Of a stretch of DNA of 13,740 nt, positions 1 to 13,740 are shown piece by piece (position 1 is the stretch's first letter; each line of letters begins with the position of its first letter). Source of the DNA: a virus (Duplodnaviria; Heunggongvirae; Uroviricota; Caudoviricetes); the IMG/VR virus record IMGVR_UViG_2695420746_000009, positions 1 to 13,740 of that record; one strand, given 5' to 3'. Made by a program: the position numbers and the translations under genes. The notes under the pieces are model-generated. The model worked only from the letters and a program-made list of their open reading frames with translations, made no database searches and was not told the DNA's origin.

Positions 1-84
1 ATCACGGTAATGATTAACAGCCCATGACAGGCAGACGATGATGCAGATAATCAGAGCGGAGATAATCGCGGTTAACCTGCTCAT
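1..84 (-). CDS. Rz: i-spanin Rz, N-terminal 28 codons only (gene runs off the window start)
   Basis: Reverse strand from 84 reads [28 protein letters not shown], near-identical to my recollection of the lambda Rz N-terminus (single TM anchor). Its ATG overlaps the endolysin stop (ATGA). Confidence 0.85.
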
Positions 85-2157: not shown

Positions 2158-2179
2158 AAAAAAACCGCCATAAAGGCGG
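2158..2179 (-). terminator. Intrinsic terminator for leftward transcription (GC hairpin plus U7)
   Basis: Plus strand CCGCC-ATAAA-GGCGG (2165-2179) preceded by a run of 7 A (2158-2164). On the minus strand this is a 5-bp all-GC stem followed by UUUUUUU. Confidence 0.6.
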
Positions 2180-2218
2180 CTTGTTGGCTATTGGGTACAA
2201 AAAACCCAACTTAACAAA

Positions 2219-2247
2219 ACAATAACTAAAAACCGTCATTTTGCCAA
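2219..2247 (-). promoter_or_regulatory. Candidate sigma70 promoter firing leftward into the terminator and late genes (pR'-like by position)
   Basis: Minus-strand TTGGCA (rc of 2242-2247), 17-nt spacer, TATTGT (rc of 2219-2224). The terminator lies about 30-55 nt downstream. No other promoter-like sequence is visible before the methyltransferase start. Confidence 0.35.
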
Positions 2248-2857: not shown

Positions 2858-2915
2858 TTTTATATTTGCTTTGTTTTCTCGTTTTGGTGTATTTTGCGCG
2901 TTAGGAGGCTATAAT

Positions 2916-3227
2916 ATGTTTAACGTGATAACCCACCCTGCAGCACTGGATGAACTGCTTGAACTACCAGACGATCTGCGAGGTCGCATGACCAGGCTAA
3001 TTGAACGACTGGAGAAAGAGGGAAACAAACTTAAGATGCCCCATAGCCGTGTAATAGGCGGAGGACTCTTTGAACTAAGAGTAGGGGATAAAAACATCGC
3101 AAGAACGCTATACGCCTACGCGACTGGTAACGAAATTTATCTATTGCATGCATTTGTAAAAAAGACACAGAAAACACCAGTAAAGGCTATAGAAATCGCC
3201 AGAACTCGCCTGAAGGAGATGAACTGA
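2916..3227 (+). CDS. Type II toxin, RelE/ParE superfamily, HigB/Gp49-like (addiction module killer protein)
   Basis: 103 aa from the ATG with SD AGGAGG 7 nt upstream. Family-typical motifs LFELR, LLHAF and KKTQKTP. Stop overlaps the start of the downstream HTH gene by 1 nt. The ORF-track start at 2871 is over-extended. Confidence 0.8.
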   Translation: MFNVITHPAALDELLELPDDLRGRMTRLIERLEKEGNKLKMPHSRVIGGGLFELRVGDKNIARTLYAYATGNEIYLLHAFVKKTQKTPVKAIEIARTRLKEMN

Positions 3228-3514
3228 TGAAAGCAAAAGGCATCCCGTTTAACGAAGTAAAGGAAAAACTACTCAACACTCCAGAAGCTATCAAAGGATA
3301 TGAAGAGGCCGATAAAGAACTGGAGATGGTCGAAATGTTATACGAAATGAGGGAAAGAGCAGGTTTAACGAAGTCAGCTCTGGCAGAACGAATGGGATTG
3401 CGCCCGTCCGCCATCAGCCGCCTGGAAAGCAATCCTTTAGGGGCAAGCATGAAAACTTTATCAAAATATGCCCAAGCATGTGGCGCAACAATTAATATTA
3501 ATGCCGTCTATTGA
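3227..3514 (+). CDS. HTH (XRE-family) antitoxin, HigA-like antidote protein
   Basis: 95 aa. Classic HTH LTKSALAERMGLRPSAISRLE. Translationally coupled to the upstream toxin in toxin-first (HigBA-type) order. Confidence 0.8.
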   Translation: MKAKGIPFNEVKEKLLNTPEAIKGYEEADKELEMVEMLYEMRERAGLTKSALAERMGLRPSAISRLESNPLGASMKTLSKYAQACGATININAVY

Positions 3515-5321: not shown

Positions 5322-5740
5322 TACGCCACCTCCTGAAAATTTCCCTGATAAAACGCCAACACACGCTGCATAACTTCGCTCTTCCGACAATCGTGACAAA
5401 TCATGTTCAAGCGCCTGTCGTAACGACGTATTTCTCCATCAGGTAATGACCAGATAAGGTCAGGATCAACAACTACCGATTTCTTCGGCTTTACTCTTGA
5501 TAGCTTTTTGCGGGCGTTTTGCCAGTCCTTGCGCGCTTGTGCAGACAGAAATATCCCGGAGCCAGAGATATACAAATCACCACTGGTGGCAAGCTCTCTG
5601 GATAAACGATTAACAGCACATCGGCTAATACTAATTTCATCTGCCAGTTGCCTAACCGTTCCTCGCCCATTCAGGCGCACGAGTTCCACAATTTGTTTCT
5701 TCAGTTCTTCACGCTGTTCTGGTGTAAAAACTTTTGCCAT
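5321..5740 (-). CDS. HTH-containing DNA-binding protein, function unknown
   Basis: 139 aa. SD GGAGA 6 nt upstream. ATG overlaps the exonuclease stop (TAATG). HTH-like stretch VRQLADEISISRCAVNRLSREL. Confidence 0.7.
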   Translation of the reverse strand: MAKVFTPEQREELKKQIVELVRLNGRGTVRQLADEISISRCAVNRLSRELATSGDLYISGSGIFLSAQARKDWQNARKKLSRVKPKKSVVVDPDLIWSLPDGEIRRYDRRLNMICHDCRKSEVMQRVLAFYQGNFQEVA

Positions 5741-6339
5741 TACGATTCTCCTTTCCCTTTTATGAGACGGGAGAAAATTGCGGATACATACTTAGCCTGA
5801 TGAATAGCATCAGCTAGGGCATGGTGTCGTTCGCCATCAAATGGCATATCTTTTTTAGAATTGAAACCAATAAACTGACCAAGATTAACGATTGTTCGAA
5901 CATCCTGATCATTAAAATATTCCCACGGACAGGCTAAGCCAACGCGCTCATAAGCACCGCGTAAAATTACATTGTCGAATGTTGCTCCATTTCCCCATAC
6001 TTTCAATTTTTTTAAATTACATGCATGGCAAGTAATAAAGTGTGATAATTCAAAAAGTGCATCCTTAATATCAAGGGCATCATTAGTACAAATTGCGGCT
6101 CTGGCTTCCTTGCTCTGTTTCAACCACCATAAAATGGTATCACCATCGGCGACACCACCATTCAACATCGAGCTTCTGAGATTCACTGGCACATAAAAAG
6201 TAGGACCTAATTCCTCACTTTCTGGAGAAAAAAACACTGCCCCGATAGAAACAATTGGAGCACATGTGTTAGTACCCATTGTTTCAAGGTCAATCATTAC
6301 ATCAGACCGTTTCCTGTCGTAAATAATCTGATTAGTCAC
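5740..6339 (-). CDS. DEDDh-family 3'-5' exonuclease (DnaQ-like fold)
   Basis: 199 aa. Exo I motif MIDLETMG (D-x-E), Exo II GNGATFDNVIL, Exo III HHALADAIHQAKY (H-x4-D with Tyr). GTG start with SD GAGGAG 8 nt upstream. Confidence 0.75.
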   Translation of the reverse strand: MTNQIIYDRKRSDVMIDLETMGTNTCAPIVSIGAVFFSPESEELGPTFYVPVNLRSSMLNGGVADGDTILWWLKQSKEARAAICTNDALDIKDALFELSHFITCHACNLKKLKVWGNGATFDNVILRGAYERVGLACPWEYFNDQDVRTIVNLGQFIGFNSKKDMPFDGERHHALADAIHQAKYVSAIFSRLIKGKGES

Positions 6340-6362: not shown

Positions 6363-6566
6363 CTATACCCAAATTTTCTGTTGATATGTTCTGGATGGTT
6401 TTGGCGTTCTTTCTGATTCAGGTAAATGAACATAAACGCAATATCCATCACCTAAAAAATCAGAACGAACAACCAGAACTTTCTTACCACGCCGCCGATA
6501 AGTATCTGAAAGACGCTCTGCTTCATCATGCGTCATCGGCCCCTGCTTAAATGGCGTTATTTTCAT
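6363..6566 (-). CDS. Hypothetical small basic protein
   Basis: 67 aa from the ATG (MKITPFKQ...). The 18-bp palindrome lies 6 nt upstream of the start; no clear SD. The ORF-track start at 6590 is a GTG inside the palindrome. Confidence 0.5.
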   Translation of the reverse strand: MKITPFKQGPMTHDEAERLSDTYRRRGKKVLVVRSDFLGDGYCVYVHLPESERTPKPSRTYQQKIWV

Positions 6567-6867
6567 TTTCTTGTGCGACCGCGGTCGCACCCTCGCTGAT
6601 TTCCAAGTAACGCTTAATCCAAAGATTTTCTATATGCTTATTACCTGGCTGATTTGATAAATACCAATCGGCAATTACAGACTGCTTATTACTATCTGGT
6701 CGTGTCCTGTAACCACAAGTTGGACACCAGATAACATATTCATTTCTTACCCCCGAATACCTTAATTCTGGCTTCGACGGTTTCCTGAACATAACTTGTT
6801 TACAAAGGCAGAATGGCACTTCCTGCCCGATGGCGTTTGATGATTTCACTGCGCTTCTCCGCCGCAT
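6547..6867 (-). CDS. Hypothetical protein with Cys pairs (CxC ... CPxCG), possible zinc ribbon
   Basis: 106 aa as given in the ORF track; start uncertain (no SD at either candidate ATG, and it overlaps the upstream gene by 68 nt if full length). Cys pattern CLC ... CPTCG. Confidence 0.4.
   Translation of the reverse strand: MRRRSAVKSSNAIGQEVPFCLCKQVMFRKPSKPELRYSGVRNEYVIWCPTCGYRTRPDSNKQSVIADWYLSNQPGNKHIENLWIKRYLEISEGATAVAQENENNAI
6573..6590. repeat. Perfect 18-bp palindrome GTGCGACCGCGGTCGCAC; copy 2 of TGCGACC-NN-GGTCGCA motif
   Basis: Read directly. Lies within the 3' end of ORF 6547-6867 (encoding ATAVAQ) and immediately upstream of the start of the 6363-6566 gene. Confidence 0.5.
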
Positions 6868-7510
6868 TTAATAATGCGGTTCGATTTAAGCTCAGACATC
6901 GCGACTTAATTAAAAGCCAGCGTTCTTTATAATCTTGTCTCCAGCTATCAATAGATATATTCAGTAGAAAACTCAGATGCCTGTCCTGTTCTCTCTCATC
7001 AACTGCCTCAGCACACGTAAGTTCTGATTTAACCTGCTGTGCCGCGTAATAAATCAATTTCCGCATGGCTTTTTTCGTGGAGGCCTTCATTTTTTTAAAG
7101 CCGCCCCCAGAATGAGCAACCAGAAAATCAAGCCATAACCACTGACAAACAATCACATCATTGTTGTAGTCAGGCTTGCATCCGTAGCAATAATAAAGCC
7201 AGGCTGATTCCTCGTTATTCAACTGACCAATAGCCCTGCGCCAGCTGGCGCTCTGAAAATCAATATCAGTGAGCAACATTGATGATTGTTTAAATGTTTT
7301 CCCTTGGTGGAATCTAACCGACTCAGCGGGAACGGACACTTCGTATGAGTTATCATCCCCCACACTGATTGACCGGACTGGTTTATTGTTAAACCGTCCT
7401 GATCTACCGAGACGCATCTGCTCAAGCTGGACCTCCAGAATGCCACGCTGGCGATAATGAACATCAGCCAATGCCGTAGAGACGCAGCTGCGTATATACT
7501 CAAGCTCCAC
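6800..7510 (-). CDS. Hypothetical protein; positional candidate for a late-gene antiterminator (Q-like), unverified
   Basis: 236 aa. GTG start with SD AGGAGA at 9-nt spacing, overlapping the cro-like stop by 11 nt. First gene after the cro-like gene. I cannot confirm Q-family membership by eye. Confidence 0.55.
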   Translation of the reverse strand: MELEYIRSCVSTALADVHYRQRGILEVQLEQMRLGRSGRFNNKPVRSISVGDDNSYEVSVPAESVRFHQGKTFKQSSMLLTDIDFQSASWRRAIGQLNNEESAWLYYCYGCKPDYNNDVIVCQWLWLDFLVAHSGGGFKKMKASTKKAMRKLIYYAAQQVKSELTCAEAVDEREQDRHLSFLLNISIDSWRQDYKERWLLIKSRCLSLNRTALLNAAEKRSEIIKRHRAGSAILPL

Positions 7511-8654: not shown

Positions 8655-11600
8655 ATGACATTAAACGATTTCTATGCGGATCGCTTTGGCAGCGATCCGT
8701 TCTCGCTAATTGAAGCAGCACGGGATGAACTAACCGAGCTGGCACAGATGGCTGGTATCAACTGGCCTGCCTGTTCCGACAACATCCAACTCAACCCTCG
8801 CGGGGGAGTTGAGCGTTACTCTTCATACAATAAAACATCTCCAGAAGCTCTCGAAAAGAGCCTGAAAGGACGCGTAGAAATTTACTCCCGGCTGGAACAC
8901 AGCAAAGGGATTGATTACCCGTTCATTAACTTCGTCCATAAAGGCAGCGATGCTGGCTCATGGAGCGGTTTCTCCTTCCTGTTTTCTGAATATCGCCGTG
9001 AGCAACAACGGAATAATGCGACCGTGGTCGCACAACCGGAAGAAGAACGGGAAAGAATAGAACGTCAGGCCGAAGCACGTCGTCGCCGTGAAGAACAAAA
9101 ACGAATTAATGACCTGAAAAACAACCAAATGGACCATGAACGTTTGCTGGGATGGCTGGCATTCCACAGCGCGTGGGAACATGCTCCGGCTGAAGACGGC
9201 TCATGGCCATATGCGATTAAAAAAGGTATTCGTGACGTTTTTAGTTCATGTGATGTGCGTCGCGTGACCAGTCACGACAGTGCGAAATGGAGCCGGGGGC
9301 CAACCACATATATGGCTATCCCTCTGGCTCACCTGGACGGTCGTTACGATGGTCGTATTGTGGGTTGGCAGCGAATCGACAAACAAGGTGGGAAATACCA
9401 GACCAGCGCAGTAACCAGCGGCGATTTCGTCGGTGCCTGCTTTGTTATCGGTGAGCTGAAAGGGGCGCAAAACATCGCTGTTACAGAAGGTTTTGCTACT
9501 GGTGCATCCATCTGGCTTGCCACGAAAAAAGATAAACGCTTTGACGCTGTGGTTGTCGCTGTATCCGCTAACAACATGGTTCATGTTGTGGAACAACTGG
9601 TAAACATGTACCCAGCGGCAAAAATCACCTGCGCACTGGATAATGACCGGAAATCTGCCACAGAAGGAAAAGGGAATACCGGCCTGCGGACTGGCTATGA
9701 AATCTTATCGAAATTCAACGATGTCCGCTGCGTCTATCCAACTTTTGAAGACGATCCGCAAATGGAGTGCAGTGACTTCAACGACCTGCACAAACTACGT
9801 GGACTTCGTGAAACCGCACGTCAACTATTTACAACAGCAAACCGCCTGAAAACCGGTACTGATTTGCTATCTCTGACGCTCAACCGCCTGAAGACAATTA
9901 AGCGGGATAACCGTCGTACTTTTGCCAAAGAGCTGCTGAGAGCGGTGGATATTGGCATGCTAACCTGTCCAGTTCCTAACAGTCCGTCAGATTTATTTAA
10001 CATGTTCTGCATCGTTCTGCGTGAAATGGGACTGGAAAATATCTATCGCGCTACGGTAAAAGACCACATTGCCCGTCGCCTGAATAAAAAGTGCCGTATT
10101 GCCCAGGCTCCGCGCTCTTTCAGCGAACGCATAACTGATCCCAATAAACGCCCTCAACATATCACCTATAAGCGTTTTGAAACTTCGGTAATGACCGATG
10201 ATGTCCTGAAGTACGTGCAATCACTACAAGGGATAGTCATCGTCCGTGCTGGTATGGGTTCCGGCAAATCTACAGGATTGTTACGACCATTAATGCATAG
10301 CTCAGAACGTGGTATCTCTGTTGCTCACCGTGTCTCCCTTATTGGTGGCCTGTGGGAAATGATGACAGAAGGAAAAGGTGTAAAAGCCGATATCCTGCAC
10401 TATCAGGACCCTGGCTATCAGGAAATGGCTCCATACGCCAGTAAACTGACCATCTGCATAAACTCGATTGTCAAAAACTGCTGGCAACCGTTGATGCGCC
10501 AGCACGACTATTTTGGCTTTGACGAGGCCACACAAGGGCTACGTGCCGTTCTTTCCGGTCGGGCTATGGAAAACCCGGTGGCTGTATTCAATACGCTAAT
10601 TGACGCGCTGGCCAGAACGGAACAACACCCAATCATGGTGGATGCTGATGCGAACGATCTGCTGGTTGACCTAGCTGAACTGGCTATGAAACGCCGTGAA
10701 GAACTAGGTTTACCGGCATGGCTGCAGATCCACGTAATTGAATTACCTGTTGATGTTCGCAACCGCGAAACAGGTGAGCCAATCCGGGTTTTTTATACAG
10801 AAAAAGATCGCATCATGACCGAGGTGGTGAAAGCTGTATCGGATGGCGAAAAAATCATGTTGGCCACCGACAGCTCCACCTTTGCAGAAGATGTGACAGC
10901 CACCCTGAGAATGCATTTTCCTGGTAAGAAATTTCTGTGTGTAAACCAGAAAAACAAACCAGAGCCAGAAGTTGAAGCATTTACCAATCAACCGAAAAAG
11001 ATGGTCAAAAAATACGACGGCCTGATTTATAGCCCGTCTATTTCATCCGGCGTGTCGATTGAGCAAAAACATTTTGACCGTCATTTCGGCATGTTCTGTG
11101 GTGAAGTTGTACCCAGCGACGCAGTGCAAATGCTACGCCGCGACCGTACAGCAAAAGAATTTATTATCGGCTTTGATAAAGCTCGTGCAAAACGTGAAAC
11201 TGACCCGCAAAAAATAGAACGAGCATTCGCCCAGGCATTGCTTGCTACCGCAGGTATGAACGGTGAACTGACGGATGTTGTTTTCGATGGCGACCGTATA
11301 TCAATGGGGGTGGCCAATACCGACTTTACCAGGATGAAAATTAAAGCAGCCGCAATTGAAGCGACTGCGCGTAACGACTACGCCAGCAACATGATCTGCA
11401 TCATGCACAGCGACGGTTATAAGGTATCGCCGCTGGCCACCGATTATGCTGCGAATGATATCGGTAAAGATCTGCGTAAAGAAGCGCGGGATATTGTGTG
11501 GGAACAGACACTGGATCTGCACCTCAATACAGAAACTCCACAAGAATCAGAGCGTGAAGAACTGCTAAAAAAACGCGCGCTGACGCTTGAAGAACAGGCA

Positions 11601-12698
11601 AAACTTGTCCGCTGGGATATTGAAAACGAACTGAAACTACCGGTTGAAGAAGGCACGCTGAAATTCTATTTCGATGGTGCTCGAGACAAAGTTCGCCGCT
11701 ATGAAACAATGCTTTTAGATGAGGTAACAGCTCGTCGTTACGACCGGGAAGAAGCAGCCATCAATTTTACCTACGCATACCGTCAGGCGGGACAGTGGCA
11801 ATATTTTGTAGTGACCGCGATGACTCGCGAGCAGGCTGATGATGTCTTTAAAACTAAATTCCCTGGAATAATCGATCACAAGGTAAAAGCTACTCCTACT
11901 GTTGAAGTCGGGGCGCGCGGTTTCTATGCGCTTAAATCAGCAACTCTCCGGCAGTACTTTATCGACTGCGGTATCAACCCTGAGACTATGACCGGCGAGG
12001 CGACTCAGGAGCGTCTCAAATTTGCTCGAGATAACCTCATGACAGCCGAACGCCGTGACCTGTTGAATAACGTTCTGCACATTGGTGGTTTTATGACGCC
12101 AAAAGGGAAGCCTAAAGTGCCGGAAGCGTTGTTTAAAAACATTTGCGACTCTCTTGGCCTTAAAACAGGTAAACGTCGCGGCAGAGACGGCGATAAGCGT
12201 CCAACCTTGCGTTTTGTTGAGCCTGAATCAGCGGCATTTATGCTGGATATTCTTGCTCAGCGTCAGAAAGATGGCCTAACCCTGAAAACGCGTAAAGCCG
12301 AGAAGACCGCCATCGAAATGGATCGCGATTTGGATCTCAATATATATATGGATGATAAAACGCGATCCACAAACGAGCAGGTTCAAAACGCCCCTCATTC
12401 AGTAATTTCTGAGGCTTTGGCTGTGTTGCCAGTGGTTGTACCTGAGTCCTGGGCGATGAGTGCGCTTTCCGGTGAGGAGCTGGCCACTATGTCATCATGG
12501 TCATCAGCCAGCATAGCTATGACGTTTGCATCTCTGTACCTCACAGAGTTCATGGATCACTTATCCAGCAATGAACTGCGGCGGTTACGTGAATACATTA
12601 CCGGGAATAGCTGGATTTGCCCCTATATTTCCAGACATCTGTTATCACTTAACCCATTACAAGCCCGCTGCCGCAGATATTCCCGTGGCGAGCGATAA
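8655..12698 (+). CDS. Large multidomain replication initiator (primase-helicase, N15 RepA-like); 3' end disrupted by IS2
   Basis: 1347 codons as an ORF. Toprim-like motifs ([12 protein letters not shown] and CALDNDR) around aa 280-330, Walker A GMGSGKST around aa 535, Walker B-like FGFDEAT, then a roughly 700-aa C-terminal region. Native sequence ends at 12611 (1319 codons); codons 1320-1347 are read from the IS2 terminal inverted repeat. Weak SD. Confidence 0.8.
9017..9034. repeat. Palindrome TGCGACC-GT-GGTCGCA; copy 3 of the motif, inside the repA-like coding sequence
   Basis: Read directly. Encodes ATVVAQ in a charged linker ([21 protein letters not shown]), in the same codon phase as copy 2 (ATAVAQ). 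Confidence 0.5.
12320..12368. other. Candidate origin-like element inside the 3' part of the repA-like gene
   Basis: 8-bp inverted repeats GGATCGCG / CGCGATCC flank ATTTGGATCTCAATATATATATGGATGATAAAA, which includes an (AT)5 run and three GATC sites within 49 bp. Confidence 0.3.
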
Positions 12699-13528
12699 CC
12701 CAGCGCACTATGCGGATGCCATTCGTTATAATGCTCGAACGCCTCTGCAAGGTTCTTTGCTGCCGTTAACCCGTCTGGTTTGGGCATGATACTGATGTAG
12801 TCACGCTTTATCGTTTTCACGAAGCTCTCTGCTATTCCGTTACTCTCCGGACTCCGCACCGCCGTGTTCTTCGGTTCAAGTCCCAACATCCGGGCGAACT
12901 GGCGTGTTTCATTAGCCCGGTAGCATGAACCATTATCCGTCAGCCACTCCACTGGAGACGACGGAAGATCGTTGCCGAAGCGGCGTTCCACCGCTCCCAG
13001 CATGACGTCCTGTACTGTTTCACTGTTGAAGCCGCCGGTAGTCACCGCCCAGTGCAGTGCCTCACGATCACAGCAGTCCAGCGCGAACGTGACACGCAGT
13101 CTCTCTCCGTTATCACAGCAGAACTCGAACCCGTCAGAGCACCATCGCTGATTGCTTTCTTTCACGGCCACTCTGCCTGTATGTGCCCGTTTCGATGGCG
13201 GTACAGCAGGTTTTCGCTCAAGCAACAGCGCATTCTGGCGCATGATCCGGTAAACACGTTTGGCATTGATCGCAGGCATACCATCAAGTTCTGCCTGTCT
13301 GCGAAGCAGCGCCCATACCCGACGATAACCATACGTGGGCAGCTCTCCGATAACATGGTGTATACGGAGAAGCACATCCGTATCATCAGTGTGACGACTG
13401 CGGCGGCCATCCATCCAGTCATCGGTTCGTCTGAGAATGACGTGCAACTGCGCACGCGACACCCGGAGACAACGGCTGACTAAGCTTACTCCCCATCCCC
13501 GGGCAATAAGGGCGCGTGCGCTATCCAC
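12623..13528 (-). CDS. insD: IS2 transposase OrfB (InsD), normally expressed as an OrfAB fusion by -1 frameshift
   Basis: 301 aa beginning [23 protein letters not shown] and ending SDNRCLEI, matching IS2 InsD from memory. DDE-type integrase core. Confidence 0.9.
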
Positions 13529-13740
13529 TTTTTTGCCCGTCCATATTCAACGGCTTCTTTGAGGAGTTCATTTTCCATCGTTTTCTTGCCGAGCAGGCGC
13601 TGGAGTTCTTTAATCTGCTTCATGGCGGCAGCAAGTTCAGAGGCAGGAACAACCTGTTCTCCGGCGGCGACAGCAGTAAGACTTCCTTCCTGGTATTGCT
13701 TACGCCAGAGAAATAACTGGCTGGCTGCTACACCATGTTG
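13486..13740 (-). CDS. insC: IS2 OrfA (InsC), C-terminal part (5' end beyond the window)
   Basis: Reverse strand reads ...[20 protein letters not shown] ... [24 protein letters not shown], then a stop. Overlaps the insD start region, which contains the slippery AAAAAAG. Confidence 0.85.

Follow-up and report, generated by a model that had tools for sequence, protein, structure and literature searches.

The DNA analysed here (the window, 13,740 nt) represents the right arm of a linear plasmid-prophage of the N15-like (Ravinvirus) kind. Its identity to two Ravinvirus phages, YDC107_1 and PhiR46_1, is 96–98%, and it aligns at ~75% identity with N15 across roughly 40% of its length, as well as at ~75% with phiKO2 and several Klebsiella and Enterobacter linear plasmid-prophages. 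In minus-strand order it holds the lysis genes, methylase, gp51 and gp50, followed by a RelE/ParE toxin-antitoxin pair, by a stretch of small genes and an exonuclease gene, and by two small genes termed ORF2 and ORF1, Q and cro; cB and repA follow cro on the plus strand. The locus considered here is formed by four minus-strand genes: a Q-like late antiterminator (6800–7510; Pfam PF06323, E = 1e-82), directly downstream of it ORF1 (6547–6867) and then ORF2 (6363–6566), and, as the next gene past ORF2, an Rv2179c-like 3'-5' exonuclease (5740–6339; Pfam PF16473, E = 8e-68). The toxin-antitoxin pair (2871–3514), a RelE/ParE-family toxin with an HTH antitoxin homologous to N15 genes 49 and 48, is itself encoded on the plus strand within this minus-strand block.

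At the junction of ORF1 and ORF2 lies GTGCGACCGCGGTCGCAC (positions 6573–6590), which equals its own reverse complement and hence is a perfect 18-bp palindrome, with arms GTGCGACC and GGTCGCAC and the central dinucleotide CG. The first-pass annotation had described it correctly, in sequence as in coordinates, as lying inside the 3' end of ORF1 and 6 nt upstream of the ORF2 ATG. Indeed, on the minus strand the palindrome is followed by the spacer AAGAAA and the ATG at 6566–6564, a gap of exactly 6 nt. The sense-strand context reads GAA ATC AGC GAG GGT GCG ACC GCG GTC GCA CAA GAA AAT GAA AAT AAC GCC ATT TAA, where the codons of the palindrome specify (E)GATAVA near the C-terminus of the ORF1 product. 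The ORF1 stop (6549–6547) falls 17 nt past the ORF2 ATG; ORF2, read in the +1 frame, shares its first 20 nt with the end of ORF1. A GAGG (6591–6594, minus strand) abuts the palindrome on its 5' side on the mRNA strand and is invariant in the N15-like group; as a displaced Shine-Dalgarno (SD) sequence it is a speculative candidate. Scans of 6573–6590 gave no sigma-70-like promoter and no terminator overlapping the palindrome, so that an operator over a promoter and a terminator can both be rejected; for an intrinsic terminator, moreover, there is no U-tract, with AAGAAAAUGAAAAU past the stem, and no terminator call. An Rfam scan gave no family matching the site, and a tRNA scan was likewise empty.

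Both flanking genes are real, as judged from the codon-position periodicity typical of coding sequence and from profile matches. ORF1 encodes a Lar-like restriction alleviation protein (phrog_6795, E = 3e-45, with a weak match to the Pfam family Lar_restr_allev), and ORF2 a conserved 67-aa protein of unknown function (phrog_1212), which covers profile positions 1–65 of 66 from its first Met (E = 1e-25). Among eight representatives sharing less than 97% identity, which formed our conservation set, the invariant columns at codon positions 1, 2 and 3 number 39, 42 and 8 of 50 in ORF1 and 37, 32 and 14 of 67 in ORF2. A search of the genome contigs with ORF2 returned a single locus. In the N15 reference record (NC_001901), homologs of both ORFs are contained in a 412-nt unannotated gap between gene 40 (Q) and gene 41, the Lar-like one at 35653–35973 (106 aa) and the phrog_1212 protein at 35954–36157 (67 aa).

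The ATG at 6566 is the supported start of ORF2, because homologs that have no palindrome begin at the equivalent Met (MAIEPF..., MRKTWF...). We also considered GTG, the first triplet of the palindrome, which is the start annotated in YDC107_1. It would place the GAGG at zero spacing, and both the PHROG profile and the palindrome-less homologs favour the ATG; this GTG is conserved anyway, being part of the site. For ORF1, two N-terminal starts are candidates. The ATG at 6867 overlaps Q, has no SD and is missing from the Klebsiella types, whereas a Met at 6792, 7 nt past the Q stop (6802–6800), is conserved in all lineages within the motif QQ[VI]M. Counter to a start at 6792, a protein beginning at this residue (Met26) would be without the CxC motif that a four-Cys Lar zinc ribbon requires, as the motif is encoded further upstream. 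An early sequence of the N15 immB region (U45242) holds no copy of the palindrome and shows a 142-aa 'orf QD1' resembling an ORF1–ORF2 fusion, a name that was carried over to both ORFs of YDC107_1. The absence of the palindrome from U45242 is most likely a sequencing compression artefact at a GC-rich palindrome. A programmed frameshift from ORF1 into ORF2, as 'orf QD1' might prompt one to consider, was rejected: ORF2 is in the +1 frame, a slippery motif is lacking, and U45242 is without the palindrome. On the other side of ORF2, Klebsiella phage 48ST307 has the ORF2 homolog annotated in-frame as a fusion to the downstream 3'-5' exonuclease (1721–2533; ...FQQKYGNKMLTY...), and in KpLi5 the two are separate and both labelled 'exonuclease'. 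These annotations hint that the ORF2 product may work together with the exonuclease.

A scan of the 13.7 kb for the motif with up to three mismatches gave three sites, at 2267–2284, 6573–6590 and 9016–9033, against no match in 200 dinucleotide-preserving shuffles of the window. The copy at 2267–2284 (GTGCGACCATGGTCGCAC) is identical to N15 41124–41141. This copy (copy 1) precedes by 20 nt the –35 element of a late-promoter-like site with an intrinsic terminator (2162–2247, minus strand; –35 TTGGCA at 2247, –10 TATTGT ending at 2219, terminator 2182–2162), and the layout in N15 is alike, with the 41124 site 21 nt before the annotated late-promoter –35. Promoter and terminator together form the target region of Q, next to copy 1. 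Between the late terminator (2162–2182) and the methylase start there is also a 28-bp near-perfect palindrome, CGCAGGACAAGCTG/CAACTTGTCCTGCG (2114–2141), which has no U-tract. The third copy (ATGCGACCGTGGTCGCAC, 9016–9033) carries one arm mismatch and lies within repA; its distance from the repA start codon is 361 nt, compared with 364 nt in N15 and 368 nt in PY54. In the numbering used by the Lane laboratory, the copies at 2267, 6573 and 9016 correspond to IR3, IR2 and IR1, respectively.

The other end of repA (8655–12698) is interrupted: an IS2 copy (12612–13740, left end TGGATTTGCCCCTATATTTCCAG...) is inserted 12 codons before the stop, and the original end ...GNS-SCSYEEQGAFYG is replaced by 28 IS2-encoded residues. 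None of the complete E. coli genomes searched shares this repA::IS2 junction, the matches being IS2 copies only. An element with IS2 in repA could be decaying.

The palindrome is kept at the Lar/ORF2 junction throughout the group. It is found at –24 or –27 of the ORF2 ATG in 24 of 24 N15-like IMG/VR loci, and at the junction in all GenBank relatives (N15, phiKO2, 48ST307, KpLi5, MStein-2023a, YDC107_1, PhiR46_1 and NZ_LR883007). Conservation of the site in homologous elements, which the first-pass annotation had proposed as a check, is thus borne out in every N15-like element examined. A further, nearly identical junction, one base apart from that of Klebsiella-type N15-like phages over the stretch compared, occurs on a 52-kb contig of an alphaproteobacterial assembly (Limoniibacter endophyticus, NZ_BMZO01000013); this contig is likely contamination and not a sign of a genuine host.

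The pattern of conservation indicates what is being selected. In the eight representatives, all six third-codon positions of the ORF1 frame inside the palindrome are invariant, compared with 8 of 50 in the 150-nt flank; by our own arithmetic, the chance of six out of six at the flank rate is ~2e-5. The variable columns of the 18-mer are confined to the two central bases and the last base. The central dinucleotide, CG in the window, is GT, AC, TC or AT in relatives, and since it occupies codon positions 1 and 2, its variation alters the amino acid (A, V, T, S or M). Because the arm third positions are fixed while the amino-acid-changing centre varies, it is the nucleotide sequence of the arms, not the protein, that is under selection; the palindrome, embedded in coding DNA downstream of Q, thus dictates EGATxVA at the C-terminus of the Lar-like protein. 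The arms are, furthermore, the same as at the other genomic copies, whose flanks are unrelated. Invariant arms around a free centre would be expected for a sequence-specific dimeric DNA-binding protein, while an RNA element conserved for structure alone would be expected to tolerate compensatory changes.

Altogether, we consider it highly probable (about 90%), from comparison of sequences, that the palindrome is bound as DNA by SopB, the ParB-family partition protein of the element, and is one of several dispersed centromere sites of the type Ia ParABS (SopABC) kind, orthologous to N15 IR2. In kind and position such a site is already described: it is an N15 IR2-type SopB centromere site. Four copies of the motif are present in the N15 genome, at 33479 (within repA), 35930 (past Q), 41124 and 45561, and three of these places are syntenic with those of the window: repA, the region downstream of Q and the vicinity of the late promoter. 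The flanks of the N15 ortholog at 35930–35947 match as well, GAGG-IR-GAGATAATGAA. For N15, the four natural SopB sites, IR1–IR4, have been listed together with their flanking sequences, IR2 as CAAAGAGG-GTGCGACCTCGGTCGCAC-GAGATAATGAA (PMC7205306, Table 4), which is exactly the N15 ortholog of the site at 6573–6590. In the same work, N15 SopB forms foci on a 4xIR array and is reported to bind both N15-type and F-type palindromes; for the dispersed centromere-like sites of N15 it cites Ravin & Lane 1999, and N15 is cited for such sites elsewhere too (PMC3235114). Published evidence of SopB binding to sites of this type, or of plasmid stabilisation by them, is confined to those of N15.

The resemblance to N15 IR2 extends to both arms, which are identical, to GAGG on the 5' side and a purine-rich 6-mer then ATGAA on the 3' side, and to the place, past Q within a Lar-like ORF that is unannotated in N15, with the ORF2 ATG 6 nt further on. 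The two differ in the centre (TC in N15, CG in the window), and the surrounding DNA is only ~75% identical. In phiKO2 the orthologous 18-mer (40345–40362) lies at the same Q-lar/ORF2 junction, and the GenBank record labels it, together with the one in repA, 'putative plasmid partitioning site'; here the centre is AC, and ORF2 begins ATGATG. The F plasmid sopC core, TGGGACCNNGGTCCCA, likewise consists of arms with a free 2-bp centre. The F sopC/PY54 class differs from that of the window by one symmetric base per arm (GGGACC vs GCGACC), and F has its sites clustered in tandem 43-bp repeats outside genes, whereas those of the window are dispersed in coding and regulatory DNA.

The window itself does not contain sopAB; to judge from its relatives, the element would carry these genes elsewhere. 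PhiR46_1, its closest complete relative and in prophage configuration, encodes ParA and ParB proteins 93% and 74% identical to N15 SopA and SopB, respectively, and has five SopB-type sites, compared with four in N15 and three in the window. We took it as the reference relative because the 'complete' records of YDC107_1 (CP025712) and NZ_LR883007 look like fold-back misassemblies around the hairpin telomere. Both show mirrored repA-to-protelomerase copies and are without sopAB and part of the tail region.

According to this identification, a SopB dimer would recognise the two 8-bp arms, leaving the central 2 bp free, and would nucleate a partition complex on the site, which the SopA ATPase would use to segregate prophage copies at cell division. 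Placed where it is, the centromere site would unavoidably add to the early mRNA a hairpin that ends 6 nt short of the ORF2 AUG. The first-pass annotation went further and assigned the palindrome a possible regulatory role beyond partition, exerted on initiation of ORF2. For N15, a role beyond partition is claimed at the level of late transcription; on the translational level, coupling is left as a weaker form of the proposal. Any regulatory effect of SopB would be on the DNA, transcriptional or architectural, near Q and the late promoter, and not on translation initiation, a view with which the layout of copy 1 and the late promoter is consistent.

A wider comparison of telomere phages bears on this. 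Distant Lar-like genes (44–54% identity) have a palindrome exactly there, at the 3' end of lar, but one that belongs to another class. The F-sopC-type core occurs there in PY54 (34394–34409, in the same reading frame, G-T-x-V) and in lineages L143, L145–L147 and L149, while L150 has TGGGGCCACGGCCCCA and L148 an imperfect GTGTGTCCACGGTCACAC. The classes found at conserved places in distant lineages are TGGGACC (F/PY54 type), TGGGGCC and GTGTGxCC. Palindromes of distant lineages were observed in L143 and L145–L151, in PY54 (L152) at 34394–34409, 31240–31255 and 40976–40991, and in L185, L191 and L192. PY54 has 11 dispersed F-type sites, one of which adjoins a promoter/terminator module upstream of the late methylase gene. 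On the 24-kb L150 contig the palindrome class proper to L150 occurs eight times, whereas almost all other IMG/VR contigs with the pattern have one. Across N15-, phiKO2- and PY54-like elements, three positions are kept, at the lar end next to Q, at the late promoter and ~365 nt into repA, although the palindrome classes at these positions differ (GCGACC, GGGACC and GGGGCC). The positions thus appear to be ancestral and the palindrome to have changed in situ, a single symmetric base in each arm separating the N15 from the F/PY54 class.

The gene past the palindrome, by contrast, is not kept. In the distant, PY54-like lineages it is not ORF2 and has its own SD 8–15 nt beyond the palindrome; on the L146/L034 contig, an ORF2-like gene lies ~1.2 kb further on. 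To judge from these alignments, the conserved adjacency is to the Q-lar module and not to the ORF2 ribosome-binding site, which speaks against selection for control of ORF2. Either a DNA-level role near Q or mere inheritance would fit this adjacency.

Such a DNA-level role could be in late transcription: SopB bound at 6573, next to Q, might interact with SopB bound beside the late promoter (copy 1/IR3) and boost Q-dependent late transcription, which would explain the conserved site positions. Ravin, Rech & Lane (2008) claim in their title that the N15 Sop system facilitates late gene expression. Between copy 1 and the –35 of the module of late promoter and terminator there are 20 nt, as in N15, and in PY54, too, palindromes are kept at the lar 3' end, beside a comparable promoter/terminator module and at the corresponding repA offset, though its sites are of the F-type TGGGACC class. 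Mechanistic detail of the Sop effect on late genes has reportedly been described as well. Positional conservation could, on the other hand, be plain inheritance together with selection for site number, and we rate a contribution to late transcription as plausible at somewhat less than even odds.

A second possibility is that the RNA hairpin is itself a translational operator, which alone or with a bound factor would block 30S access to the ORF2 start and so regulate ORF2. The palindrome RNA is predicted to form a 7-bp stem with a 4-nt loop, of –11.1 kcal/mol alone and –12.5 kcal/mol in its local context, and the orthologs are alike. The hairpin is thus stable, and it spans –24 to –7 of the ORF2 AUG, the place at which three free-standing, palindrome-less ORF2 homologs have AGGA or AGGAGG. 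ORF2 itself lacks a good SD, its spacer AAGAAA being a poor one; spacers elsewhere in the group hold weak-to-moderate SD-like purine runs (GAGATA in N15, AGGGTA in the Klebsiella types and AGGATGATA in L032). In these respects the earlier proposal that the hairpin occludes initiation has a basis. Yet the AUG and the 6-nt spacer are unpaired in the predicted structure, and its 3' arm contains no SD motif, such that neither an SD nor the start codon is sequestered. The predicted cost of opening –20 to +13 of ORF2, 13.8 kcal/mol, falls within the range of the other gene starts in the window (6–19 kcal/mol), several of which have equally costly ribosome-binding sites, and hence gives no sign of exceptional occlusion. 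The hairpin, moreover, lies within translated ORF1. The arms show no compensatory variation in the N15 group and match exactly those of the DNA sites at other loci, the arm changes between lineages are symmetric, as would equally be expected for a dimer-binding DNA palindrome, and no RNA-binding factor is known for the sequence. Finally, in some lineages SD-like AGGG or AGGA motifs directly follow the hairpin, and adjacency to ORF2 is lost outside the N15 group. We therefore regard a translational operator as unlikely, and the hairpin may have no measurable effect on ORF2. The related claim of the first-pass annotation, that a bound protein blocks ORF2 initiation, does not hold: SopB binds duplex DNA, and so cannot occlude a ribosome-binding site on mRNA, and nothing suggests that it binds an RNA hairpin. 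In the literature, with the N15 primary papers covered by their titles and citations, we found nothing on translation linked to the IR sites.

What the geometry and the predicted hairpin do suggest is coupling. In all N15-like variants the stop codon of ORF1 is positioned from –7 to +20 nt relative to where ORF2 starts. Since the hairpin is inside translated ORF1, ribosomes would melt it, which makes coupling likelier than switchable control; ribosomes completing ORF1 would terminate 17 nt past the ORF2 start and reinitiate at ORF2. Most likely, then, ORF2 would be translated mainly by coupling to ORF1. The arrangement shares with translational coupling across structured intercistronic or overlapping regions, which is general in phages and operons, the stop/start overlap, the weak downstream SD and a hairpin in the upstream ORF that ribosomes must melt. 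It differs from them in that the hairpin exists here due to a DNA-binding site, and selection for a role of the RNA is not evident.

Split Shine-Dalgarno sequences bridged by a hairpin are found at genes 38 and 25 of phage T4. In the same manner, folding of the palindrome RNA could bring the 5' GAGG to an effective 6 nt from the ORF2 AUG. GAGG abuts the palindrome in every N15-like sequence, its silent third position included (GAG, never GAA), and hairpin and AUG are 6 or 9 nt apart. These observations come from few independent lineages (eight), however, and GAG-G also serves ORF1 as Glu-Gly codons, which constrain it. In addition, spacers of the Klebsiella and L032 types have an AGGG or AGGA of their own, and PY54-type lineages lack GAGG before the palindrome and have a normal SD past it, which together make a split SD improbable.

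That the palindrome is a chance sequence, a relic of a restriction site (SacII, CCGCGG) or an intrinsic terminator has next to no probability: it is GC-rich and contains CCGCGG, but its conservation and copy number (three observed, none in the 200 shuffles) already refute chance, and the SacII site is incidental because the central CG varies among relatives.

The identification as a SopB centromere site thus stands, and its main value lies in correct annotation: the three palindromes of the window are the element's centromere sites, and the Lar-like and phrog_1212 genes are real, yet missing from the N15 reference annotation. Beyond this, we put forward as a tentative and rather doubtful proposal that the positions of the sites, and not just their number, are functionally constrained, that the partition complex is an architectural element of the lytic switch, and that in the N15 group the hairpin couples ORF2 to ORF1. 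If this were true, one DNA sequence would be constrained in three ways, as a protein-binding site, as codons of ORF1 and as a fold in the mRNA where the following gene begins, and the partition system would be wired into phage late-gene control. The combination of kept positions and changing specificity class across N15-, PY54- and other telomere-phage lineages provides a handle on why these centromeres are dispersed.
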